Shown in pieces: positions 39,869 through 51,706 of a DNA stretch of 64,000 bases (positions are counted from its first letter, which is position 1; each line of letters opens with the position of its first letter). A program made the translations under genes and the position numbers. Below the pieces are notes generated by a model. That model was given only the letters and a program-made list of their open reading frames with translations. It ran no database searches and was not told where the DNA came from. This stretch comes from an uncultured delta proteobacterium (GTDB lineage: Bacteria; Desulfobacterota; Binatia; UBA9968), in the NCBI GenBank assembly GCA_963816145.1, contig CAWFJP010000017.1:32001-96000 (forward strand). Direction: 5' to 3'.

Positions 39869-41392
39869 TCAGACCTTGTTCTTGGCGGGGGTCTCGGATC
39901 CGGCCGGCTTCCGCGACCGCGTCGACGCGCGCGCTGGGGGCTTCTTCGGGATCGCCTTTCGCGGCACACGCGCTGCCACAGGCGCGGCGGCCGCGACGCG
40001 GGCGCGCGGACGTCTTGGCTTGGTACGACCGGGGGGCTCGGCGGTCGTGTCGGTCGGCATCGGCTCGTCATTGAACCGATCCTCCTCGGCCCGCTCTTCC
40101 AGCTCGAATCGGTCGACAGCGTCGACGGGTTGCGTATCCAGCATGCCTAGGCGCCCGGCTTCCATCACTTCTTGGGATGGGGCGATTGCGGGCGACGGGC
40201 CGGTCTGCTGCAACGCCGGCCCCTTAAGCACGCGCAGGCCGCCTCGACGATCCCGCTCGAGTCGCACGAGGCCCTCGCGCTGACACGCGCGCAACAGATC
40301 GATCAGCCCCATGAAACCGTATCGGCGCTCGTCGAAGCCGCCCCGGGTGGCTCGTAAGAGCTGCTTGACGTTGCGCAAGTACATCGGCCACCGTGCCGCT
40401 GTAGCAGCGGTCAGGATCTGGCCCACCAGACGGACCCCGTCAGCCTGATCGCCCTTCGGGACGACGGGTGCCTCGATCGGGGCGAGCTGAGACACCTCCT
40501 CCACGGCCTCGGCCAACACCGCCCGCGGCTCGGTCTCTGCCTCGGGCGCAGCCGCGCGACCCTCGTCGCGCGTCTCTGCGACGGCGACGGGCCGGCTCGC
40601 CACGACCGCGGTCGAAGACTCGCTCTCGTCGAACTTCTCGTTGAGCTCGACCATGACGCTTCGACCGGTGTGCTTGAGCTGGGCGAGACCCGATTGCGCG
40701 AGCTTCTCGACGAAATCGAGGAATGACGACGCACCATAAGTCCGCTCGGAGAAAGTCGAGTCGAGCTGGAGCAGCGTGCTCTTGAGCAGGCCGATCTGCG
40801 GCGAGACTTCCCGCTCGGACAGAATTTTCAGCGCGCGTCGCACGATGGGGAAGGCCTGCGCGATGGGCGCGGTGGCGGCGGACGTCACCGGGCGGTCGCC
40901 CTTGGCGACCGAGCGGCGGCCGCGCGTCAGGTTCTCATAGGCGATGAACTCGTGGCAGTTGCGCTGGAGGATGGTGCTGGTGAACGCCCTGCCACCGACG
41001 ACGAAAACTTTCTTGTCGTATTGCTTGAGCTTCTCGACCAGCGAGAGGAAGTCGCTGTCGCCGCCAACGATCACGTACGCGTTGATATGCGGGTGCGTGA
41101 AGGCCATTTCGAGGGCATCGAGCGCCAGATTGATGTCGGCGCCGTTCTTGTCGCCGCCGGGCGTCAAGTTGCGCTGCACCAGGCGGATGGCGTGTTGGGT
41201 GAGGTGGCGACTGTACTCGCCCGCGCGCGTCCAGTCGGCGTAAGCGATCTTGGTGACCACCTCGCCGCGCTCCTTCAAGGCGTCGAGGATGGCGCCGACG
41301 TCGAAATTCTCACCAAGCGTCGATTTGACGCCAATCTCGATGTTGTCGAAGTCGATGAACACAGCGATGTTAAGACGGTCCTGATGGGGCAA
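39869..41392 (-). CDS. NYN (LabA/DUF88) domain protein with two LOTUS/OST-HTH domains
   Basis: VFIDFDN, KNGADINLALDA, GGDSDF; DSTFSERTYG.SSF and GFDERRYGF; basic low-complexity tail; TTG start. Confidence 0.88.
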   Translation of the reverse strand: MPHQDRLNIAVFIDFDNIEIGVKSTLGENFDVGAILDALKERGEVVTKIAYADWTRAGEYSRHLTQHAIRLVQRNLTPGGDKNGADINLALDALEMAFTHPHINAYVIVGGDSDFLSLVEKLKQYDKKVFVVGGRAFTSTILQRNCHEFIAYENLTRGRRSVAKGDRPVTSAATAPIAQAFPIVRRALKILSEREVSPQIGLLKSTLLQLDSTFSERTYGASSFLDFVEKLAQSGLAQLKHTGRSVMVELNEKFDESESSTAVVASRPVAVAETRDEGRAAAPEAETEPRAVLAEAVEEVSQLAPIEAPVVPKGDQADGVRLVGQILTAATAARWPMYLRNVKQLLRATRGGFDERRYGFMGLIDLLRACQREGLVRLERDRRGGLRVLKGPALQQTGPSPAIAPSQEVMEAGRLGMLDTQPVDAVDRFELEERAEEDRFNDEPMPTDTTAEPPGRTKPRRPRARVAAAAPVAARVPRKAIPKKPPARASTRSRKPAGSETPAKNKV

Positions 41393-41772
41393 TGGAATTT
41401 CCTTTCGAGCTTCTACTCTATGCCGAGAGCGGCGCGGGCGCTTCGGTAGGGGGCAGAATCACACGCGTGAACCGGCCCCGCTGCATGATCTCTCCGCCCT
41501 TTCCGCCGCTCCCGGTCGGTCACCCGGTGCCATCTATCGGAACTTTGAGCCACTTGGCTTATGACTGGAGATTTATCGCTCGACAAGAGAGAATTCAATC
41601 ATCAAAGAATTGACTGGAATTCGCGGAAAAAGTCACGCGGTCCGGCCGCGACTTCGAAGTGCAGGACGCTGCCGAGTTCGAGTTTACAACGCTCCAATCT
41701 TGAAAGTGGTTAGTGCTCATCTCGTTTGAAGATGAAGCGTCCTTGGCGATGACAGTGGGCGAAGAATCAAAT

Positions 41773-41851
41773 ATCAAACGACCAAAGCCTGACACCATGC
41801 CCGTGCGCTGACAGAGTGTTCCAGATTTGCTGCGATACTAGACCTGACCCT
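41773..41851 (-). repeat. Left inverted copy of the composite REP-like element bounding the defence island
   Basis: Reverse complement agggtcaggtctagtatcgcagca...tctggaacac...gtgtcaggctttggtcgtttg matches 48815-48907. Confidence 0.75.
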
Positions 41852-42198
41852 AGGCGCTTTCCGGGCGGCGCTGCGGTCGGAGGGGGCGCGAAGTGTTCCA
41901 GATCGCATCGCTCGCTCTGGCAAACGGTTGTCGCCCGTCCCCAAAAGGGCGCCGAACTTTATTTTGGCACCTGAAAAATTCCGAATCCGCGAAGTCGGGC
42001 TAGTAGAGCATAAATAGCGAGCGCGCCTGCAGAGGTTGGGTTTCGTGCTCGACTTTATCTAGGTTTGTCCGAGGCCAGTCTCGTTGGTTCCCGTCAAGAA
42101 AAGACCCCTTATTCTGCTTCGACCATCTTGACGCAACGCATCACAGCTACATATATCTAGCATTGGCAATAAACCTTTATATATTAATATCTTATAAA

Positions 42199-42257
42199 AT
42201 GTTCCCTAAATACATCGATATATTTGACTTAGAATAGGGAACATATTATATTAGGCA
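42199..42257 (+). promoter_or_regulatory. Sigma70-type promoter of higBA with inverted-repeat operator; probably leaderless
   Basis: TTGACT (42224-29), 17 bp, TATATT (42247-52), then ATG 5 nt later. Perfect IR ATGTTCCCTA (42199-208) / TAGGGAACAT (42235-44). Confidence 0.75.
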
Positions 42258-42548
42258 ATGCGGATCGTCGCAAAGAAGACTCTGCGCGAATTTTGGGAGC
42301 GCTGTCCGGACGCTGAAGATCCCCTCTTGGCGTGGTTTCGCGAAGTTGAAAAGGAAGATTGGAGCAAGCCGTCGCAGGTAAAAGATAAATATAGAAGTGC
42401 AAGTTTTGTCGGGGATCGCATTGTGTTCAATATCAAAGGAAATGATTACAGGCTCGTTGTGAAAATAAATTATCCGTACCGGGTTGTTTATGTGCGTTTC
42501 ATCGGCACGCATAAAGAATACGATGAGATCGACGTTGAGGAGGTGTGA
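42258..42548 (+). CDS. higB: HigB mRNA interferase toxin
   Basis: MRIVAKKTLREFW...W..P...VFNIKGNDYRLVV.I.Y...YVRFIGTHKEYD.ID. Confidence 0.93.
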   Translation: MRIVAKKTLREFWERCPDAEDPLLAWFREVEKEDWSKPSQVKDKYRSASFVGDRIVFNIKGNDYRLVVKINYPYRVVYVRFIGTHKEYDEIDVEEV

Positions 42549-42549
42549 G

Positions 42550-43776
42550 ATGAACAATATTCGAGCAATTCGAAGCGAAGCAGATTACGACGCCGCGCTC
42601 GCGCGTATCGATGCCCTTATGGACGCCGAGAGTGGTACCCCCGAGGGCGAAGAACTCGACGTGCTTACTGACCTTGTTGAACTTTATGAGGCGAAGCATG
42701 TTCCCATGGGTTTTCCGAGGCCGCTTGAAGCAATCCGCTTTCGCATGGAGCAGGCAGACCTTTCACCACGTGATCTTGTTCCGTTCATGGGCAGCCGTGC
42801 AAAAGTCTCCGAGGTGTTGTCCGGCAAGCGCCCACTCACCATGCAGATGGCTCGCGCCCTGCACGCCAATCTCGGCATTCCCGCTGATGTGCTGTTACAG
42901 CAACCGGGTGGTGAGTTGCATTCGGCGCTTGAAGGTACCGAGTGGCACCGCTTTCCATTGGCGGAAATGGCAAAACGTGGATGGATCGAAAAGCGTCGCA
43001 ATCTTGACACTCTTGCCGAAGAAATCATGCGGGATCTGATTGGTCGGGCGGGAGGCGAATATGTTTTGCCTGCAGCGTTCTTTCGGAAGAATGATCACGC
43101 CCGCATCAACGCGAAAACGGACCCATACTCTCTCAAAGTTTGGTGCTGGGAAGTGCTAGCGCGAGCGAATGCCCATAAGCTGCCTGTCAGCTTTAAACCC
43201 GGCACGGTCGATCTCACTTTTCTGCGGAAAGTGGCCACATTGAGCTGGTCGCAAGACGGTCCCCGACTCGCCCAAGAGTTCCTCGCTAACCACGGTATTC
43301 ATCTCGTGTATCTTGAGCATTTACCGCGTACGCACCTCGACGGCGCGGCTCTTCAACTCGCCGACGGCACACCCGTTATTGGACTGACCTTGCGCTACGA
43401 TCGGCTCGACAACTTCTGGTTCTGCTTGCTGCACGAACTTTCTCATATCGGCCGCCATATGAACGAGACGAAGAATGAAGCGTTCGTCGATGATCTGAGT
43501 CTTCGTGACGTGCAAGGCGCGCGACGTGATCCACGAGAAACCGAAGCGGATGAGTGGGCCGAGAATGGTCTCATTCCAGAAGACATATGGAATACGAGCA
43601 AGGTAAAGGACAAGCCAACGCCGCTGGCCGTTATGGAACTAGCCCAGCGGCTCGGCATTCACCCCGCCATCATTGCCGGTCGCATCCGCCACGAGACACG
43701 GAACTTTCGCCTGCTGTCCCATTTTGTGGGGACAGGCACGCTACGAAAACAGTTTCTTAAAGGCGGAGAGCAATGA
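42550..43776 (+). CDS. HigA antitoxin fused to ImmA/IrrE-type Zn metallopeptidase
   Basis: N-terminal HigA (DYDAAL..., EAIRFRMEQ, VSEVLSGKRPLT); C-terminal LDGAA, LRYDRLDNFWF.LLHELSH (HExxH), E.EAD.WA. Confidence 0.88.
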   Translation: MNNIRAIRSEADYDAALARIDALMDAESGTPEGEELDVLTDLVELYEAKHVPMGFPRPLEAIRFRMEQADLSPRDLVPFMGSRAKVSEVLSGKRPLTMQMARALHANLGIPADVLLQQPGGELHSALEGTEWHRFPLAEMAKRGWIEKRRNLDTLAEEIMRDLIGRAGGEYVLPAAFFRKNDHARINAKTDPYSLKVWCWEVLARANAHKLPVSFKPGTVDLTFLRKVATLSWSQDGPRLAQEFLANHGIHLVYLEHLPRTHLDGAALQLADGTPVIGLTLRYDRLDNFWFCLLHELSHIGRHMNETKNEAFVDDLSLRDVQGARRDPRETEADEWAENGLIPEDIWNTSKVKDKPTPLAVMELAQRLGIHPAIIAGRIRHETRNFRLLSHFVGTGTLRKQFLKGGEQ

Positions 43777-43952
43777 TTTTTTAGCTCCAACATCACAATG
43801 TACGATGTTAAAACATGGCTAATCTTGAGGGGCGTGAGAGACGCAAGTATCGAACGAAGGACTCGACGTGCGCAGAGTTATCTAGAGTTGTAGGATCGAC
43901 TTGAAAGCTAAAGGCGGACCTGAACTCATTTTTGACTGTGGAGGAAGAAGAC

Positions 43953-45509
43953 ATGGCTACACGCACATGGGACAAAGACCGAGCCTCGAAGCGCATCGAT
44001 GCACGCATCGCGGAGCTTCCGATCGGCGACATTGAAATCAAGAAGTTCGTACGCGAGACGGACTTGACCAGTCTCCCGCGGAACGTGGCGTACCGCCTTC
44101 ACGGCGTCCACCTCTATGCCGACATTCTCAATCTGGCGGACATGCTTCACGTAACCGAGGTGGAAGGCGAGACTTGCCACCGGCGGACGCTCCGATTTCT
44201 GAACCTGCATTACCGAGCCGTCCATCGGACGCTTCAGCGGGTGGACGCCATCTTTGTTGACTTTCACAACCAGCGCCTGCACTCCGTGATCGCGAAGCCG
44301 TACGACTCGGAGGTCGATCGCATTCACAAGGCCGTCGCCGTGGCGCAGTTGATCATCGACGTGCTCGCGCAGACCGGCGAGGACGCGGACCATCCTGCCG
44401 CGAAGGTCAGAGTTGGGATCGACACCGGTGAAGCCCTCGCTGTGAACAATGGACGCCGAGGCCATCGGGAACCCCTGTTTCTGGGGGAGCCAGCGAATCA
44501 CGCTGCCAAGCGCGCGTCAGGCGGGAAAGGGACGGGGATCTATCTGACGAGCAAAGCCCGGGAGACGCTCGGTCTGAAGCGCGTTGATAACGAAGATGCA
44601 ACGGCGCTCACAACCGAAGAAATCGCGGCGTCGCAAGACGAGGCTGCTCTGGATGTCACGGCCGACGATATCGTGAAGGAATGGCGCGAGGATCTCAAGA
44701 ATAGCCCAATCGGCGCATTCGGCTTCAGCGGCCATACGCCGCCCTTCAGGACGCTCGACATCGAAGAACTGTCAGTAAAGAACTCGCGGCGTCAGGATGC
44801 GGCTACGGTCTATTCCGATATCGACGGCTTCACCGCCTACGTCACCAAGAACATCACCACTGACACCGCTTCGAAGCATGTCGTGCGCGCGCTCCACGTT
44901 CTGCGCAGTGAACTGGACGCTGTGCTTCACACCGACTTCGCCGGCCGCAAGGTGCGGTTTATCGGGGACTGTGTTCATGGGCTGCTGGTGGAAGGTACGG
45001 CGCAGACGTCGGATGCGATCGAAACAATCAGCAACATGACTCTGTGCGCCGGAGGCATGCGCAGCAGCTTCGAGCTCGCGCTGTCAAAGCTGAAAGCCAA
45101 TGGCACCGACGCGTCAGAGCTCGGGTTGGCAATCGGGTTCGAGTACGGGCCAATGAACGTGACCCGGCTTGGCATCAAGAGCGAGCTCGTGCGCTGCTCG
45201 GCGAGCCGAGGTGTTGTTGCCGCCGAACGAGAACAATCCCGCTGCTCGGGGACGGAGACGGCGATCGGGCCCATTGCGTACGATAGTAGCAATGATGCGG
45301 CGCGCACCGCGTTTGGGAAATCGCGGAAGCGATCCGGGCTGACCTACGACGTCGCTGTCAACGAGCTGGCCGACAAGGGCGATGCGGTCGCGAAGGCTGC
45401 CCGTGCCATGGGGACGGCCGGGTCGCTGAAACCCGCGACTTCGGCACCTTCCGCTTTCAGCTTCCCGAATCGACCGACGGGTCCCGCGAAGCCGGACGGT
45501 TTCGCATGA
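43953..45509 (+). CDS. Tandem class III nucleotide cyclase, Pycsar PycC-like
   Basis: Domain 1 YADILN...RVGIDTG...LGEPANHAAK; domain 2 YSDIDGFT...RFIGDC...IGFEYG; GGAGGA RBS; operon context. Confidence 0.85.
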   Translation: MATRTWDKDRASKRIDARIAELPIGDIEIKKFVRETDLTSLPRNVAYRLHGVHLYADILNLADMLHVTEVEGETCHRRTLRFLNLHYRAVHRTLQRVDAIFVDFHNQRLHSVIAKPYDSEVDRIHKAVAVAQLIIDVLAQTGEDADHPAAKVRVGIDTGEALAVNNGRRGHREPLFLGEPANHAAKRASGGKGTGIYLTSKARETLGLKRVDNEDATALTTEEIAASQDEAALDVTADDIVKEWREDLKNSPIGAFGFSGHTPPFRTLDIEELSVKNSRRQDAATVYSDIDGFTAYVTKNITTDTASKHVVRALHVLRSELDAVLHTDFAGRKVRFIGDCVHGLLVEGTAQTSDAIETISNMTLCAGGMRSSFELALSKLKANGTDASELGLAIGFEYGPMNVTRLGIKSELVRCSASRGVVAAEREQSRCSGTETAIGPIAYDSSNDAARTAFGKSRKRSGLTYDVAVNELADKGDAVAKAARAMGTAGSLKPATSAPSAFSFPNRPTGPAKPDGFA

Positions 45510-47293
45510 TCTGGTACTTCCAAGACAGCGCGCGCAGCAAACGGGAGCGGGAGGCGATCGAACGGCTCGCATCGCAGGTTCCCTGGATGACACCGCGTGG
45601 GCTCAGGATCGACGGCTCGTTGCGTCTGATCTGGGACATTGATATCTCGACTGGCGAGCGTACATACCCGGTGTCCTTGCGGTACCCGAACCACTTTCCG
45701 TACTCCCCGCCCGTGGTGCTGCCGCGCGGGGACTCGGACCGATGGTCGTCACATCAGTATGGGCCAGGCGGTGAATTGTGCCTCGAGTACGGTCCGGACA
45801 ACTGGCATCCGGAGATCACCGGCGCCGACATGGTCGTGAGTGCCTTTCGACTCTTGCAAGGCGAAAGCCCGACCAGCGAGGAGACCGCTGTCGCCTCTCG
45901 TCACAAGATCACGCTCGGGCAGTACGTCCGAAACAGGTTTTCGAGATTCGTGATCACGCGGGCTGCGGTCGAACTCTTCGCGACTCTCGACGAGGGTGTA
46001 GCAGTCTTGGGCAAGGCGGTAGGCGCCTTGCGCGAAGAGTCGTGGGTCACCGCTATCAGTTCTGTCTCACTGCCTAGCGGTGAGACTTGGATCGAGCCGG
46101 AGATGCCAGAGCCATTTCGCACTGAAGGATGGGAACGGGATATCGCCGGCTTCAAGTGGCCGGAGGACGTTCGGCTACCGTCAGCGAAGACCCCGGCCGA
46201 CTTGCGCGCAGTGACCGCCGAGCGCGGCTTGGCGATTCCAAAGGTGTCACACGTCCTGCTCTTTCAGGGATCGAGCGTACACGTTTATGGCCTCGGCGAT
46301 GAGGACGGCCAGGTTTGGCGCCCAGTTGTAATTATGCCTCCCCCTCCATCGACACGGCTCGACACCGATCATGCGGTTCTAGCGGAGCGAAAAATCGGCG
46401 TTGTCGGATGCGGGTCCATGGGCAGCAAGATTGCCGTGATATTGGCCCGTTCTGGAGCGAAGAGATTTTTCCTGGTCGACGATGACATCATGCTGCCTGA
46501 CAATCTCGTGCGCCACGACTTGGATTGGCGGGAGATCGGAACTCATAAAGCCGACGGCGTTGCCCGCCGAATTCAGCTCGTCAATCCTGGAGCGATTTGC
46601 GAAAAGCGCCGGCATCGTCTGGGCGGACAGGAATCCAGCGGAAGCGTCGAGACCCTAATTGAGAGTCTCGCCGAGTGCGACATGCTAATCGATGCAACCG
46701 CAAATCCGATCGCTTTCAATTATTTGTGCGCGGCTGTCGCGGTCGCCAAGACGACCCTCGTCTGGGCCGAGGTGTTCGGCGGGGGCTTTGGTGGACTCAT
46801 AGCTCGCCACCGTCCTGGCCATGAACCTGATCCGGCCTCGATGCGCCGGACCATCGAGGCCTGGTGCGCTGATCAAGGCAAGCCGATCCCTCGATCGACG
46901 ACCGATTATGGCGGCGCAGAAGAAGCGGCTCTGATCGCCGACGACGCAGACGTGACTACAATTGCGGCACATGCCGCGCGGCTTGCGATCGACACACTCA
47001 TCTCACGGACGCCCTCAACTTTTCCGCACTCGGTTTACCTTGTCGGCCTCGCAAAGCAGTGGATATTCGACGCACCATTTGACACATATCCCATAGACGT
47101 TGGGCAACCGATGACCTCCGAGGCATCGACACCAGCGAATTCTGAAGAAAGGGCCGCTGAAGTTGCGAGGATCGTCCAGTTGCTAGCGGATCACCAGGAT
47201 GCAGGTACTTTTGCCGGCTCAGATAACCAAACGGATACGGGAGGAACTCCGACGAGCCAAGACTCAGGAGATCGGGGGGCTGCTGATGGGTGA
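45506..47293 (+). CDS. E2-E1(ThiF) fusion, Cap2-like ubiquitin-like conjugation enzyme
   Basis: E2: YP..FPYSPP.V, HQY...ELCL (C92). ThiF: GVVGCGSMGS, DDD, NLVRH, K. ATGA overlap with the cyclase. Confidence 0.88.
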   Translation: MIWYFQDSARSKREREAIERLASQVPWMTPRGLRIDGSLRLIWDIDISTGERTYPVSLRYPNHFPYSPPVVLPRGDSDRWSSHQYGPGGELCLEYGPDNWHPEITGADMVVSAFRLLQGESPTSEETAVASRHKITLGQYVRNRFSRFVITRAAVELFATLDEGVAVLGKAVGALREESWVTAISSVSLPSGETWIEPEMPEPFRTEGWERDIAGFKWPEDVRLPSAKTPADLRAVTAERGLAIPKVSHVLLFQGSSVHVYGLGDEDGQVWRPVVIMPPPPSTRLDTDHAVLAERKIGVVGCGSMGSKIAVILARSGAKRFFLVDDDIMLPDNLVRHDLDWREIGTHKADGVARRIQLVNPGAICEKRRHRLGGQESSGSVETLIESLAECDMLIDATANPIAFNYLCAAVAVAKTTLVWAEVFGGGFGGLIARHRPGHEPDPASMRRTIEAWCADQGKPIPRSTTDYGGAEEAALIADDADVTTIAAHAARLAIDTLISRTPSTFPHSVYLVGLAKQWIFDAPFDTYPIDVGQPMTSEASTPANSEERAAEVARIVQLLADHQDAGTFAGSDNQTDTGGTPTSQDSGDRGAADG

Positions 47294-47714
47294 GCACGTC
47301 TGTGACGAGCTGTTCCGAGTCGTCGATATTTCGGTTCAGCGGTCGGGAGGATCGCAGGTCCATTTCGTACGCGACGCGTCCAGCCATGCCACTCAGCTGC
47401 AGGCGTTCTTTGCGCGTACGGGCAATGATTTCACGCGCTTCAATTACCTCGGCGAGTGGCATTCGCATCCGACGTTTGCGCCGGCTCCCAGTTCGACCGA
47501 CTTCGATTCCATGCAATCGATCGTCGACAATCCGGACGTTGGTGTGAATTTTTTGATACTCCTAGTGTTCAAGCTGGCTAGCCGAAAGAGACTGGCAGGA
47601 ACCGCAACAGTGTTCAGGCCGCATCAGCCATGGACGAGTGTGGTTGTTATGACCGAAGAGAACGGAACGGGCTCGCGTCTTGAGCGCGCGCTGCCTTCGT
47701 GGCTGCGAGGATAG
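47199..47714 (+). CDS. JAB/MPN metalloprotease, Cap3-like
   Basis: E24(IGG)...YLGEWHSHP...PSSTD, the JAMM motif. Confidence 0.92.
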   Translation: MQVLLPAQITKRIREELRRAKTQEIGGLLMGEHVCDELFRVVDISVQRSGGSQVHFVRDASSHATQLQAFFARTGNDFTRFNYLGEWHSHPTFAPAPSSTDFDSMQSIVDNPDVGVNFLILLVFKLASRKRLAGTATVFRPHQPWTSVVVMTEENGTGSRLERALPSWLRG

Positions 47715-47846
47715 TTCACGCGTTGAGCATTCACCCACTCGGTGTTGGCAATCGCCGCGCGAGCACTGTCCTGGGGATTACGGTCTCTGTAAACCGAAGA
47801 CATGGCAGTACGATGATTTTCGCGTTCGTAGCAGAAGAGGATTTCC

Positions 47847-48755
47847 ATGAAAGAGCGTTTTGAGGGTGGCACCGGCCGCGGGTTGCTTCTCGATGTACTT
47901 CAGAAGCAGGACATCGTCCGAAACGACAAGTCGCTCGCCGAAGCGCTTGCCGAGGGAGGAGAGATCGTTCAATTCGACGGCGGCGCGGACATCGTTCGAC
48001 AGGACGGCGCTGACAACGATGTCTTCTTCTTGCTCGCCGGCGATGCGAACGTGCTGGTTAACGATCGCTTTGTCGGGACGCGGACGGAAGGGACGTGTAT
48101 CGGCGAGATGGCCGCTCTCGATGCCGCCGCGCGGCGTTCCTCGACCGTTCGCGCAAATTCGGTTGTCGTGGCGTTGAAGGTTCCGGAACCGGCTTTTCGG
48201 GCAGCGTGTGAGGCGCATCCCCTTGTGTTCAAGGCTCTCTCCCAGCTCGTCTCTCATCGTCTGAGACAACGTTCAGCGTTCGTTCAGCCGCCGAATCCAC
48301 AGCCAGTGCTCTTCATCGGCAGTTCCACTGAGGCACTTTCAATCGCGAACGAATTGCAGGCTGGTTTCAAGTACGACAAGTTCAACGCGATTATCTGGAA
48401 GGACGGAGTGTTCGGGCCCGGCGGCGTCGCCTTTGATTCCCTCGCGCAGATTGCCGGCGGCTCAGATTTTGCCGCCTTCATCATTTCGCCAGACGACACA
48501 GTCATCAGCCGCGAGGCAGAGAAACTGGCCCCTCGTGACAATGTGATCTTCGAGCTTGGCCTCTTCATGGGCGTGCTCGACCGACAGCGCGTCTTCTTGA
48601 TTCGCGAGCACGATGCCGATGTGAAGATTCCTTCGGACCTGCTCGGCATTACACAGGTGACCTACGTCCTGAAGAAGGGCGGCGACCTCACGACGGCGCT
48701 CGGTCCCGTATGCACTGAGCTGCGCAAAGCAATCGCCACGCACGGCGTTCGCTGA
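47847..48755 (+). CDS. cNMP-binding domain + TIR-like effector (PycTIR-like)
   Basis: CNB: RQDG, GEMAAL...RSSTVRA. TIR: LFIGSSTE, DFA.F...PDD, PRDNVIFELGLFMG, PSDL.G. Confidence 0.92.
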   Translation: MKERFEGGTGRGLLLDVLQKQDIVRNDKSLAEALAEGGEIVQFDGGADIVRQDGADNDVFFLLAGDANVLVNDRFVGTRTEGTCIGEMAALDAAARRSSTVRANSVVVALKVPEPAFRAACEAHPLVFKALSQLVSHRLRQRSAFVQPPNPQPVLFIGSSTEALSIANELQAGFKYDKFNAIIWKDGVFGPGGVAFDSLAQIAGGSDFAAFIISPDDTVISREAEKLAPRDNVIFELGLFMGVLDRQRVFLIREHDADVKIPSDLLGITQVTYVLKKGGDLTTALGPVCTELRKAIATHGVR

Positions 48756-48806
48756 GCGAGAAACGGCGACCCAAAGGGATCGTGTCGGCTTTTTGAAATT
48801 TCAGTG

Positions 48807-49518
48807 AAATTTCAGGGGTCGGGTCTAGCATCGTAGCATTCAGGCTACTACGCGTTGAGTCTGGGAACACAGAAATGGAACACAGTGTCAGGCTTTGGTT
48901 ATTTGTTTATGAGTCCCCCGCCGAACAGATGAGTTAAAATTATCTAAGAACCCAAAGCCCGAAACTATTGTCTATTCCACTATCGTCTATTGCACGAACC
49001 GCAGACATTTCGCGCACCCCTTTGGGAGGACGAAGGTCTAGCGCTAGCTCACCGGCTCCGCCACGAAGATCGGAATCACCCGGGTCGTTCGAGTCTGATA
49101 CTCCGAATACGGCGGATAGGCCGCCACGGCGGCTTTCCACAGGCGTTCTCGCTCCGCCGTGTCGGTGACCTCGCGCACCCGCATCTTCCGCACCACTGCC
49201 AGATCGCGAAGCTCCACTAGCGGATTGGCACGCAGGTTGTAGACCCAAACCGGATTCTTGGGCGCTCCGCCCGTCGACCCGACCAGCACATAGTTGGTGC
49301 CGTCCTTGACACGCATCAGCGGCGTCTTGCGAATGGCTCCGGTCTTGTTGCCTGTGTGAGTGACGATGATGACCGGCAATCCGGTATCGCGCAGCGTGTT
49401 GCCTTCGGCGCCGCCCGTACGCTCGTAGAGTTCGACCTGCTCGCGCACCCAATCTCTCGGGCTCGGGATGTATTCAGCCATGGGCTAATCTCCTCGACAT
49501 GGTTACTCGGCTCCGGGG
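48807..49518 (+). repeat. Direct repeat copy 1 (~710 bp) containing the REP-like element and a DDN gene
   Basis: Near-identical to 50605-51316 (offset 1798) with scattered substitutions. Confidence 0.95.
49044..49481 (-). CDS. Deazaflavin (F420)-dependent nitroreductase family protein, copy 1
   Basis: G.KTG..RKTPLM, S.GGAPKNP.W.YNL.ANP, Y..YQ..T.R.IP.F. Confidence 0.92.
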   Translation of the reverse strand: MAEYIPSPRDWVREQVELYERTGGAEGNTLRDTGLPVIIVTHTGNKTGAIRKTPLMRVKDGTNYVLVGSTGGAPKNPVWVYNLRANPLVELRDLAVVRKMRVREVTDTAERERLWKAAVAAYPPYSEYQTRTTRVIPIFVAEPVS

Positions 49519-49560
49519 ATACTTGGGCACAGTCGCGGGTGTCAGGCTTTGATTCTTTGC

Positions 49561-49962
49561 TCAAGTATTGGCTAAAACCGTCAGTAAGTCGGTTTTTGAA
49601 AAATCTTCCCCCTTGAAGAGCAACGGCAGACCGGTGGCCTTGGCTAGCGCGTAAGAAAAACAATCTCCGTAGTTGAGCCCCGCGCTGTTTCTGCCTTTGC
49701 CATAGCGGGAATAGGCTGCTCGCGCGAGCTCGAGATGCTGCGCGGTGAAGTTTTCGATTTGTATACCGGCGTCTTGGATCATCCGGTCGACGATCTGCGC
49801 GGCCCTGGCGCCGTGCCGATTGAGCATCACGATGTGCAATTCGAGCAGACTCGCCGCGGAAATGAGCGGGGCATCCGCCTCAGCGATCGCTTCTGCGTAT
49901 ACCGCCGCATCGGGCTCCCGGTCGAGGATCGCGATGAGCGCAGAAGTATCGACGACGATCAT
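49561..49962 (-). CDS. vapC: VapC PIN toxin
   Basis: MIVVDTSALIAIL..E, YGKG...AGLNYGDCFSYALAK, LLFKGEDFSKTD. Confidence 0.95.
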   Translation of the reverse strand: MIVVDTSALIAILDREPDAAVYAEAIAEADAPLISAASLLELHIVMLNRHGARAAQIVDRMIQDAGIQIENFTAQHLELARAAYSRYGKGRNSAGLNYGDCFSYALAKATGLPLLFKGEDFSKTDLLTVLANT

Positions 49963-50210
49963 CGCGGCAAACCGCTGTCGTCGTAAAGCATCTCTTCGGC
50001 CGATCGTTCATCGATCACAGGCAACCGGCTGCATTGGTCACCCAACTTCAGGAGTTTCGCTGCGAGCGCTTTCCGATTCCGTTGACGCCGCAAGCGTTCC
50101 AGGCGCTCGGTGACCGCGTTGTCCACAGCCTCGGCGATTGTCTCGCCCGTGATGCGCGCCAATTGCTTGGCTCGACGGTGCGTATCGTCGCTCTTTATGT
50201 TCATGCCCAT
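49959..50210 (-). CDS. vapB: VapB (Rv0623-like) antitoxin
   Basis: MNIKS...A.QLA..TGET...AV..A..ERL; LYDD.GLP; ATGA overlap with vapC. Confidence 0.92.
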   Translation of the reverse strand: MGMNIKSDDTHRRAKQLARITGETIAEAVDNAVTERLERLRRQRNRKALAAKLLKLGDQCSRLPVIDERSAEEMLYDDSGLPR

Positions 50211-50604
50211 GCTGAAGATCCCCTAAAGGTATACTTTTGTCGATCTTATACCCCGGCCCGGTTTTGCACAACAGAGCGGCCGAGGTGCTGGGAGCCAGAT
50301 ATGGGTCACAGATCGGGATCAGGGCTATACTTTTGCTATTGATTGCGTGTTCTCTCGTTCCCTTCCCATGACTCGGCTAGCATACTCATCTATGCGGTCG
50401 CAGCGGGCTATGCGCTTTCCAAGGCCAACTCATCGGGCAACCGCTTGCTCGACGGCGGTATCCTTAAAGAAGCCCGGGTTGTTGCCTACCGATCTCTGCG
50501 CGACACACGGCGCGCTATACGGTTCCGGTGTCCCCGCTGTTCGGTGGCGACTTTAGAGATGATTTTGCCGTCGAGGGTCGGAAAGCCATAGAAAACTAAT
50601 TGGT

Positions 50605-51316
50605 AAATTTCAGGGGTCGGGTCTAGCATCGTAGCATTCAGGCTACTACGCGTTGAGTGTGGGAACACAGAAATGGAACACAGTGTCAGGCTTTGGTTAT
50701 TTGTTTATGAGTCCCCCGCCGAACAGGTGAGGTAAAATTATCTAAGAACCCAAAGCCCGAAACTATTGTCTATTCCACTATCGTCTATTGCACGAACCGC
50801 AGACATTTCGCGCACCCCTTTGGGAGGACGAAGGTCTAGCGCTAGCTCACCGGCTCCGCCACGAAGATCGGAATCACCCGGGTCGTTCGAGTCTGATACT
50901 CCGAATACGGCGGATAGGCCGCCACGGCAGCTTTCCACAGGCGTTCTCGCTCCGCCGTGTCGCTGACCTCGCGCACCCGCATCTTCCGCACCACTGCCAG
51001 ATCGCGAAGCTCCACTAGCGGATTGGCACGCAGGTTGTAGACCCAAACCGGATTCTTGGGCGCTCCGCCCGTCGACCCGACCAGCACATAGTTGGTGCCG
51101 TCCTTGACACGCATCAGCGGCGTCTTGCGAATGGCTCCGGTCTTGTTGCCTGTGTGAGTAACGATGATGACCGGCAATCCGGTATCGCGCAGCGTGTTGC
51201 CTTCGGCGCCGCCCGTACGCTCGTAGAGTTCGACCTGCTCGCGCACCCAATCTCTCGGGCTCGGAATGTATTCAGCCATTGGCTTGTCTCCTCGACATCG
51301 TTATTCGGCTCCGGGG
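50605..51316 (+). repeat. Direct repeat copy 2 (~710 bp)
   Basis: Matches 48807-49518. Confidence 0.95.
50842..51279 (-). CDS. Deazaflavin-dependent nitroreductase family protein, copy 2
   Basis: Identical to copy 1 except EVTD to EVSD. Confidence 0.92.
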   Translation of the reverse strand: MAEYIPSPRDWVREQVELYERTGGAEGNTLRDTGLPVIIVTHTGNKTGAIRKTPLMRVKDGTNYVLVGSTGGAPKNPVWVYNLRANPLVELRDLAVVRKMRVREVSDTAERERLWKAAVAAYPPYSEYQTRTTRVIPIFVAEPVS

Positions 51317-51706
51317 TTAATTGCGGGGTCAACCAGCACAACTGCTCGGTTTCACCACAGAAGATAGCATAAAAAGCGTCGGTTCAGGGCTTAGACGGGC
51401 TTTTTCGACCCGGAAATCGGCTTGTTAAGATAAAAAACCAATGCCCCGGAAGGAAATCGAGGTCCATACTTTTAATCCTAGACTGTCTTGCTTCTCCTTC
51501 GGATACGGTCTCGATGGGGATATAGCTGACGAACTTGACAGACTCGGTCTCACCGTTATCAGCGGAACCGTCCCGTTAACCGGGTGTGGTGCTCGTGTCC
51601 GGTGTTAGGGTAAGGCATGAGTTATCGACTAATTGTCGAAGCATCATAGTCAGCGTGAGAGCAATGAACTCAAGAACAAATCTTGCTAGTCCGTGCTTTT
51701 GCAATT

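Follow-up and report, generated by a model that had tools for sequence, protein, structure and literature searches.

A candidate 'type II Pycsar' cassette with a clade A nucleotide cyclase, E2-E1, JAB and CNB-TIR genes in an uncultured Binatia bacterium

Introduction

In Pycsar, an antiphage resistance system built on pyrimidine cyclases, clade A of the cyclase PycC is distinguished by two consecutive cyclase domains in one chain and includes the enzyme of Pseudomonas aeruginosa (PaPycC, PDB 6YII); cyclases of clades A-D convert UTP to cyclic UMP (cUMP), according to the available part of PMC11224242. In the type II form of CBASS, an antiphage signalling system based on cyclic oligonucleotides, the cyclase is adenylated by Cap2 at its very C-terminal end, and the cut made by Cap3 falls exactly behind that end, as described in the portion of 10.1101/2022.03.31.486616 available to us, in which Pycsar has 0 occurrences. 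The discussion of 10.1101/2024.11.21.623953 puts the name 'Type II Pycsar' next to type II CBASS, and a 'Pycsar-like-4' subclade was linked to E2, E2-E1 and JAB genes, with regulation by ligation proposed (10.64898/2026.08.12.744502, section 5; both sources available in part). Immune signalling under the control of conjugation has been studied in depth in CBASS; for its Pycsar counterpart, the literature searched offered no more than a name and inferences from neighbouring genes. The question at stake is whether the E2-E1/JAB logic of CBASS also primes a class III cyclase, whose fold is unrelated to that of cGAS-like enzymes. Here we describe a four-gene locus of this kind in a 64,000-nucleotide stretch of contig CAWFJP010000017.1 from an uncultured delta proteobacterium (hereafter the window, meaning the whole stretch analysed).

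Gene content and borders of the cassette

The locus at 43953-48755 consists of four + strand open reading frames (ORFs) in one direction, the first three overlapping, as a sequence-only reading of this DNA had described. The start codon of the E2-E1 gene lies within the cyclase stop codon (ATGA, a 4-nt overlap), the E2-E1 and JAB genes share 95 nt, and a gap of 132 nt separates the JAB and TIR genes. The cyclase ATG at 43953 is preceded by a GGAGGA ribosome-binding site, 7 nt upstream. The features, with the evidence for each, are as follows.

43939..48766, + strand: whole cassette, the apparent unit of inheritance and transfer, from the cyclase ribosome-binding site to 11 nt beyond the TIR stop codon (blastn borders)
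43953..45509, + strand: PycC, class III nucleotide cyclase of clade A with two domains, 518 aa (PADLOC, PDB 6yii_A, conserved columns, ribosome-binding site)
45420..45506, + strand: codons of the cyclase C-terminal tail (residues 490-518, ending G-F-A), proposed adenylated and conjugated end (GFA census)
45506..47293, + strand: Cap2-like E2-linker-E1 fusion, 595 aa (PADLOC, Pfam, AlphaFold2 fold match to 7to3_A, conservation)
47199..47714, + strand: Cap3-like JAB/JAMM isopeptidase, 171 aa (PADLOC, Pfam, NCBIfam below cut-off, conserved motif)
47847..48755, + strand: PycTIR-type effector, 302 aa (PADLOC, PDB PycTIR 8jsj_A/8jsk_A, residue census)

We read 43939-48766 as an intact, horizontally acquired 'type II Pycsar' cassette, in which a cyclase primed by conjugation would activate an effector that destroys nicotinamide adenine dinucleotide (NAD+), and we put the probability of this full reading at about 0.85. 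All four proteins were covered by PADLOC models over their full length. Pfam and PADLOC bore out the domain calls of the sequence-only reading for the E2-E1 fusion, the JAB protein and the CNB-TIR protein, and with the PDB and fold matches given below they support its identification of a Pycsar-type cyclase and CNB-TIR effector accompanied by a Cap2-like E2-E1 and a Cap3-like JAB. Its proposed course of events, from cyclase conjugation through cyclic mononucleotide (cNMP) synthesis to NAD+ depletion, stands as the best homology-based reading. None of the four proteins matched a CD-NTase family in Pfam, PADLOC or NCBIfam, and the locus thus has no CBASS-type synthase. To judge from conserved residues, all the catalytic motifs of the four proteins are intact, and the cassette is a genuine, intact defence gene set of a catalogued type.

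The borders of the cassette were sharp. Homology in blastn comparisons with related loci (numbered L) began exactly at 43939 for L001, L002 and L095, and it ended exactly at 48766 for L001, L093, L094 and L095. The DNA flanking 43939-48766 was unrelated to the flanks of these relatives in the same comparisons.

The two-domain cyclase

The cyclase matched the PADLOC PycC model PDLC00762 over its full length (E = 3e-215). Pfam assigned Guanylate_cyc to two stretches of the protein, single-domain PADLOC PycC models matched residues 37-206, and PDB 6yii_A aligned to residues 3-492 with both halves included (E = 1.8e-175); by all three measures the window cyclase has the two domains of clade A PycC. 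Homologues on Pseudomonas plasmids, at 56.7% identity, bear the RefSeq label 'Pycsar ... uridylate cyclase PycC'.

A scan of one genome per species gave 87 cyclase relatives, from which 80 loci were kept. Conservation and the cyclase tree were determined from the window protein and 73 of these 80, after L015, L055, L057, L058, L059, L060 and L068 had been dropped as cut or broken. The metal-binding aspartates of the C-terminal domain, D289 (S-D-I-D-G-F-T) and D339 (G-D-C), which the sequence-only reading had picked out, were kept in at least 97% of the 74 cyclases. The N-terminal domain keeps N182 and K186 (P-A-N-H-A-A-K) and is without the conserved metal pair. Since both metal-binding aspartates are found only in the C-terminal domain, the chain looks like a pseudo-heterodimer with a single complete active site, a view that leans on what is generally known of class III cyclases. 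What the sequence-only reading called a 'tandem cyclase' is one polypeptide with two cyclase-homology domains, of which only the second carries the metal pair. As two domains are the defining trait of known clade A PycC (PDB 6YII; available part of PMC11224242), this feature is no new twist.

Recurrence and transfer of the cassette

The gene order recurred far beyond chance. An E2-E1 gene directly follows the cyclase in 31 of the 80 genome loci, and 29 of these 31 have a JAB gene, the two exceptions being one disrupted locus and one contig end. A TIR gene was present within 4 kb downstream in 26 of the 31 (12 co-directional and 14 convergent); the other five comprised two contig ends, one locus with the TIR gene 5 kb off, one with a weak partial match and one with none in 8 kb. 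The sequence-only reading had staked its proposal on the TIR gene being linked to the other three genes in other genomes, and the linkage in 26 of 31 loci therefore answers that concern. The position of the TIR gene as the last in the row, which it had offered as a peculiarity of this variant, is the norm among E2-E1 loci.

A second arrangement was found in 43 of the 80 loci (L019, L025-L066 and others), where a stand-alone E2 gene of ~260 aa directly follows the cyclase and no JAB gene is present. One example, L027:9536-10324, matched the PADLOC E2 model (3e-94) and Pfam E2-ntca and E2-Crich. The remaining loci consisted of four with neither arrangement or with a disrupted one, and two cut by contig ends.

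Identity to the closest loci was mosaic: against L002, it was 90% for the cyclase and 43% for the effector, and against L095, 91% for the cyclase, 61% for E2-E1, 71% for JAB and 90% for the effector. A search of 60 relatives, of which 30 share the genus, 6 the family and 24 the order, did not turn up the cyclase. Plasmid records that carry it number 28 (12 typed conjugative); no phage record encoding it was found. Homologues are carried by Acidobacteriota, Nitrospirota and Alpha-, Beta- and Gammaproteobacteria. The sharp borders, the absence from 60 relatives and the carriage on plasmids mark the cassette, by comparative criteria, as acquired horizontally as a module.

Up to 3.5 kb upstream in 13 of the 31 E2-E1-type loci (L004-L007, L010, L013, L014, L016, L020-L022, L041 and L057) lies a second ORF that resembles a single-domain cyclase by its motifs, and in 7 of those 13 it is adjoined by a gene for a hydrophobic, possibly membrane, protein. 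If these upstream ORFs are what their motifs indicate, two Pycsar-type systems would often stand side by side. The window has no second cyclase nearby.

The E2-E1 fusion and the JAB peptidase

The E2-E1 protein matched the PADLOC E1-E2 model PDLC00855 (7e-197) and Pfam ThiF (2.7e-18), with a weak match to UQ_con (0.0027). In sequence comparisons, the E1 half matched ThiF and Cap2 chains, and the E2 half matched UBC9. An AlphaFold2 model made with 26 homologues had a predicted local distance difference test score of 77, and its best PDB match was E. cloacae Cap2 (7to3_A; E = 6.5e-24, 610 aligned columns, 15% identity).

Two sets were aligned for this family, one of 28 rows, which reads through stops in some tails, and one of 26 rows, which contains true ORFs; both gave the same invariant residues, and L021 and L022 were excluded because they are identical to L020. 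The E2 cysteine C92 foreseen by the sequence-only reading was invariant in both sets. The G301-C-G-S-x-G306 loop, D325/D327, N333/R336 and K348 were invariant in the 26 homologues, and the adenylation domain also has D396. The locus thus encodes, as type II systems do, an E2-E1 fusion in which the E2 cysteine is present and the adenylation site intact. According to the available part of 10.1101/2022.03.31.486616, CBASS Cap2 is without Y-P..F-P..P-P, H-Q and a Trp following the cysteine, all of which the E2 part of this fusion keeps. The putative E1 crossover-loop cysteine, C454, which was placed from the ThiF alignment, is Cys in 22 of 28 homologues; W, S or F occupies its column in the other 6, and a strict E1~thioester step would therefore not hold for every member of the family. 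The corresponding E1 cysteine was dispensable in vitro for CBASS Cap2 (10.1101/2022.03.31.486616, same part). From about residue 535, the C-terminal tail of E2-E1 is variable and was modelled with low confidence, and part of it overlaps the start of JAB.

The E2-E1 and JAB genes overlapped in 25 of 25 loci measured, by 4-95 nt. The JAB protein matched PADLOC PDLC00893 (2.8e-62), Pfam Prok-JAB (6e-12) and NCBIfam Cap3 (4e-11, below the cut-off of that model). Its JAMM motif is complete (E24, H88-S-H90, S98 and D101) and was kept in at least 95% of 30 homologues, which holds for all four residues (E24, H88, H90 and D101) that had been proposed from the sequence. A JAB/JAMM gene adjoining E2-E1 is a further feature shared with type II systems.

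The cyclase tail as candidate substrate

The cyclase ended in G-F-A in 29 of the 31 E2-E1-linked loci (of the other two, one ends in GFS and one has a broken frame) and in 0 of the 49 loci without an adjacent E2-E1 gene. The cyclases of two metagenome relatives, L094 and L095, are also GFA-ended. To keep the tail out of the cyclase tree, we built it from residues 1-470 alone. In this tree, 29 of 30 E2-E1-linked rows fell into one branch (Shimodaira-Hasegawa-like approximate likelihood ratio test, SH-aLRT, 99), with one apparent loss of E2-E1 inside the branch and one E2-E1 row outside it. The E2-E1 state required 3 changes on the tree, a number as low in 0 of 500 label shuffles, among rows that are related and not independent.

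Because Cap2 and Cap3 of CBASS act on the cyclase C-terminus, this tail rule is the best available evidence for the cyclase as a conjugated substrate, and by analogy it points to the tail as the conjugated end. At the sequence level, the window cyclase carries the conserved C-terminal end on the signalling enzyme that is a signature of type II systems. A complex prediction with E2-E1 residues 1-545 and cyclase residues 270-518, run with alignments, scored 0.00 in two runs, with the controls unfolded, and speaks neither for nor against binding. In stand-alone-E2 loci, many cyclase tails have R-P-Y or R-P-H near the end instead of G-F-A (judged by eye), which suggests that the E2-only form may follow a different tail recognition rule.

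It is also conceivable that E2-E1 and JAB modify a protein other than the cyclase, such as the TIR effector or a host or phage protein, in the manner of the Bil-type systems and their ubiquitin-like protein. Conjugation targets are unknown even for type II CBASS, and Bil systems are reported to attach a ubiquitin-like protein to phage proteins (available part of 10.1101/2024.11.21.623953). However, the cassette consists of only four ORFs (43939-48766), and a ubiquitin-like gene is absent from it. No protein but the cyclase, whose stop codon overlaps the E2-E1 start, has a C-terminus that goes with E2-E1 (GFA in 29/31 versus 0/49 loci). The effector has a conserved glycine near its terminus, Gly300, but effectors of loci that lack E2-E1 share it (at least 95% of 64 effectors), as does a Burkholderia effector whose neighbour is a single-domain cyclase. 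We consider modification of another protein quite unlikely and retain the cyclase as the proposed substrate.

The effector and the signal nucleotide

The effector matched PADLOC Effector/TIR PDLC00731 (2.4e-103) and PycTIR PDLC02371 (4.4e-94). Pfam found cNMP_binding and CAP12-PCTIR_TIR in it, so that it has the CNB domain expected of a Pycsar effector, and in the PDB it matched the PycTIR structures 8jsj_A (1.3e-41, residues 3-301) and 8jsk_A (7.8e-22). Residues 1-146 aligned gap-free with the cUMP-bound CNB domain of PsPycTIR (8JSK). The ribose, phosphate and stacking contacts, G86, E87, A89, R97, S98 and R138, are all kept (contacts from the available part of PMC11224242). The TIR catalytic glutamate, E236, is present, as the sequence-only reading had stated, and was kept in at least 95% of 64 effectors.

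The departure from known cUMP receptors is at position 143. In PsPycTIR, Asn143 reads N3 and O4 of uracil, the N143S variant gave no response to 10 uM cUMP, and the residue aligns with the adenine reader S128 of E. coli CRP (PMC11224242, as available). The window effector has Ser at this position in place of the uracil-reading Asn of PsPycTIR-type receptors. Among the 64 effectors beside clade A cyclases, 62 have Asn143, and Ser occurs only in the window and L080; the effector of L001, which is truncated and outside this set, also has Ser143. A metagenome scan of 80 effector relatives gave N in 42, S in 17, G in 10, T in 4, L in 3, A in 2 and E in 1, with 1 unreadable. Of the ten closest metagenome effectors, seven have Ser143 (L093-L096 and L100-L102), and three have Leu143 with E236 lost. 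As it is common to the closest relatives, Ser143 is, on these alignments, a lineage trait and not a lone mutation. The three Leu143 proteins (L097-L099), ~60% identical to the window effector, have Ala for the catalytic Glu236, and these CNB-TIR proteins are probably inactivated or repurposed.

The same architecture might therefore work with a messenger other than cUMP, namely a purine cNMP (cAMP-like) or another nucleotide. The alignment of Ser143 with CRP S128 and its presence in the closest relatives (L001, L093-L096 and L100-L102) would fit such a signal, as would the AlphaFold3 ligand scores that favour ATP for E2-linked 'Pycsar-like-4' cyclases in the Pucsar preprint (10.64898/2026.08.12.744502, available in part). 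On the side of the cyclase, however, the base-pocket positions inferred by class III analogy (Y55, D103, H105, R108 and L175) are kept in at least 97% of the 74 clade A cyclases and are unchanged whether the neighbouring effector has Asn143 or Ser143. Clade A PaPycC is reported to be a uridylate cyclase (PMC11224242, available part; RefSeq name). Ser143 effectors also adjoin single-domain cyclases ~55% identical to BcPycC (7R65), one of which, in L100, keeps the pyrimidine-selecting Y50, D94 and R97 positions of BcPycC (hand-counted on the alignment). We regard a non-cUMP messenger as doubtful on this evidence. Judged from these residues, the signal is probably cUMP, and another cNMP is a minor possibility.

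The serine could also mean that the system is a decaying relic, in which an effector blind to the cyclase product leaves it silent. The insensitivity of PsPycTIR N143S to cUMP (PMC11224242, as above) is in line with this idea, as is the loss of both position 143 (Leu) and E236 (Ala) in related effectors (L097-L099). Against it, all four frames of the window locus are open and their catalytic motifs are intact. Moreover, Ser143 is kept together with E236 down to 38% identity, in 17 of the 80 metagenome loci, which indicates selection on a working variant. Decay is very improbable, and we continue to read the locus as an intact Pycsar cassette. We give a slim chance to a wider departure from known systems, in which the Ser143 lineage would reflect a real change in which cNMP is read, or in the way it is read (a purine or other base, or uracil without Asn), the ligase would work in two steps without an obligatory E1 thioester, and G-F-A would be a code distinct from that of CBASS.

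Proposed mechanism and comparison with known systems

By analogy with type II CBASS, the E1 domain would adenylate the ...G-F-A end of the cyclase, and the adenylated end would be passed, perhaps via Cys454, to Cys92 of the E2 domain and then ligated to a target, priming the cyclase. The JAB peptidase would remove the conjugates and so keep the system in check, again as in CBASS. Upon infection, the cyclase would make a 3',5'-cyclic mononucleotide, most likely cUMP as reported for clade A PycC. Binding of this cNMP to the CNB domain of the effector would lead to oligomerisation, hydrolysis of NAD+ by the TIR domain and abortion of the infection.

Several points weigh against this reading. A promoter and terminator scan of the locus stayed at background (3 promoter-like sites versus 2.9 expected). 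The identity of E2-E1 to CBASS Cap2 is low, C454 is replaced in part of the family, Ser143 and the published ATP scores sit uneasily with cUMP, and the case for cyclase conjugation is indirect. In the openly accessible literature that was searched, we found no paper testing whether a Pycsar cyclase is conjugated or whether an E2-E1-linked Pycsar locus defends against phage. The published Nature version of the Cap2/Cap3 work and Tal 2021 reportedly may mention E1/E2/JAB genes beside Pycsar.

Compared with clade A Pycsar of P. aeruginosa (PaPycC, 6YII), the window has the same two-domain cyclase with the same catalytic and pocket motifs. In the Pseudomonas-type loci, a CNB-TIR effector adjoins the cyclase (L038-L040), as in the window, but a stand-alone E2 stands where the window has E2-E1 and JAB, the cyclase tail is without G-F-A, and the TIR gene lies upstream. 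With type II CBASS (E. cloacae Cap2-CdnD, 7TO3; V. cholerae), the window shares the E2-linker-E1 fold, the JAMM partner, the conserved short C-terminal end on the signalling enzyme and overlapping genes. It differs from type II CBASS in that its synthase is a class III cyclase and not a CD-NTase, its E2-E1 is 15% identical to Cap2, and no more than 22 of 28 members of its family have the E1 loop cysteine. The window E2 also matches UQ_con/UBC9 and keeps the Y-P..F-P..P-P, H-Q and Trp features that set it apart from Cap2 (10.1101/2022.03.31.486616, as available). The effector has the CNB-TIR architecture and length of PsPycTIR and NpPycTIR (8JSK, 8JSJ), with the contacts and the TIR catalytic Glu kept, but Ser in place of the specificity residue Asn143 of these cUMP receptors.

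The same gene links and the same proposed conjugation characterize 'Type II Pycsar' and 'Pycsar-like-4' in the available parts of their descriptions, and we place the window among them by gene content. The 'Pycsar-like-4' preprint arrives at an ATP preference by AlphaFold3 scores, whereas PMC11224242 gives cUMP for clade A (both as available). The same four genes also occur on plasmid pB2-1-1 of Mesorhizobium sp. B2-1-1 (NZ_CP083955.1, 41792-46460), with a cyclase 71.6% identical to that of the window. Their annotation is generic (cyclase, ThiF family, Mov34/MPN/PAD-1 and TIR proteins). In contrast to the window, the TIR gene is convergent, the locus is plasmid-borne, and a RES-family gene and a restriction endonuclease take the place of the HigB/HigA-peptidase pair as neighbours.

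The class is not wholly new, as the sequence-only reading had stated: it has been named in print, and PADLOC (2023) already has subfamily-specific models for all four proteins. New here are the sharp borders, the G-F-A tail rule and the dichotomy in clade A between E2 only and E2-E1 with JAB, together with the variability of the E1 cysteine and the effector lineage that carries Ser143; these additions are modest and testable. Its compact size (4.8 kb), its completeness and its sharp borders make the cassette a convenient candidate for a first test. The G-F-A tail rule offers a direct mutational handle, and the Asn/Ser split at position 143 a simple test of signal specificity. It is otherwise an ordinary defence-island gene set.

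The upstream HigB/HigA-peptidase pair

Two further genes stand upstream in the same orientation as the cassette.

42258-42548, + strand: HigB-like gene (PADLOC PD-Lambda-2 A, 1.2e-40, full length)
42550-43776, + strand: HTH-M78 peptidase fusion (PADLOC PD-Lambda-2 B, 1.5e-143, full length)

A sigma-70-like promoter match is located at 42224-42252. PD-Lambda-2 is a toxin-antitoxin-like defence system composed of A (HigB-like), B (HTH-peptidase) and C (P4 antitoxin-like), the last being required for defence (available part of PMC9519451). C was sought only in the 177 nt that separate B from the cyclase gene, and no ORF of at least 50 aa was present there.

The sequence-only reading had counted this toxin-antitoxin-peptidase pair among the features of the system, and the pair could belong to the cassette as its sensor or regulator, a DNA-damage switch resembling a fusion of CapH and CapP, which would make a six-gene system. 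Its orientation, its end 177 nt upstream of the cyclase gene and a weak PADLOC capP match of the peptidase part (4.5e-5) are compatible with such a role. CapH and CapP regulate Pycsar and CBASS operons (PMC13373217, available part), a TIR homologue in metagenome locus L155 lies ~2 kb from a similar pair, and an imperfect inverted repeat brackets the pair together with the Pycsar cassette. However, no such pair was found within 8 kb of the cyclase in any of the genome loci (0/80), and both proteins match a separate system, PD-Lambda-2 A and B, over their full length. GC content is also lower at the pair (0.49-0.55) than in the cassette (0.57-0.63). Because of the 0/80 co-occurrence, the lower GC content and its position outside the block of DNA homology to relatives, which begins only at 43939, we treat the pair as a separate neighbouring module; an integral role is improbable.

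Surroundings and repeats

The GC content falls to 0.49 at 41400-43000, compared with 0.64-0.68 in the neighbouring NYN gene, and homology with the same-genus genome G004 (87% identity) ends at 41629; this region is probably the left edge of a variable island. An empty site was not found in G004, where the right-hand genes sit on other contigs. The gene that borders the island, at 39869-41392 on the minus strand, encodes a 507-aa protein with NYN ribonuclease and OST-HTH/LOTUS domains and a long Arg/Pro-rich tail; a search of 18 same-genus genomes found it conserved in 5. An Rfam search over 41000-51500 gave no match, and no tRNA was found within the window.

A 21-nt motif occurs four times, at 41775-41795 (inverted), 48885-48905, 49539-49559 and 50683-50703, with 0 expected in 100 shuffles. 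Together with a ~23-nt block (41828-41850 versus 48815-48838), it forms the imperfect inverted repeat around the HigB/HigA-peptidase pair and the cassette. We rejected the inverted copies as transposon ends, as there is no transposase gene and they are only weakly similar (E 0.002 and 0.008 when 1 kb was compared with 2.8 kb). A dispersed repeat was likewise rejected: within the window's own genome, the two near-identical copies are the only ones of the 101-nt stretch around the motif.

To the right of the cassette, a 719-nt direct repeat, 98% identical, is present at 48807-49525 and 50605-51323, with the copies 1798 nt apart. Each copy carries a gene for an F420H2-dependent quinone reductase on the minus strand (49044-49481 and 50842-51279), and the two copies flank a VapC(PIN)/VapB-like pair at 49561-50210.

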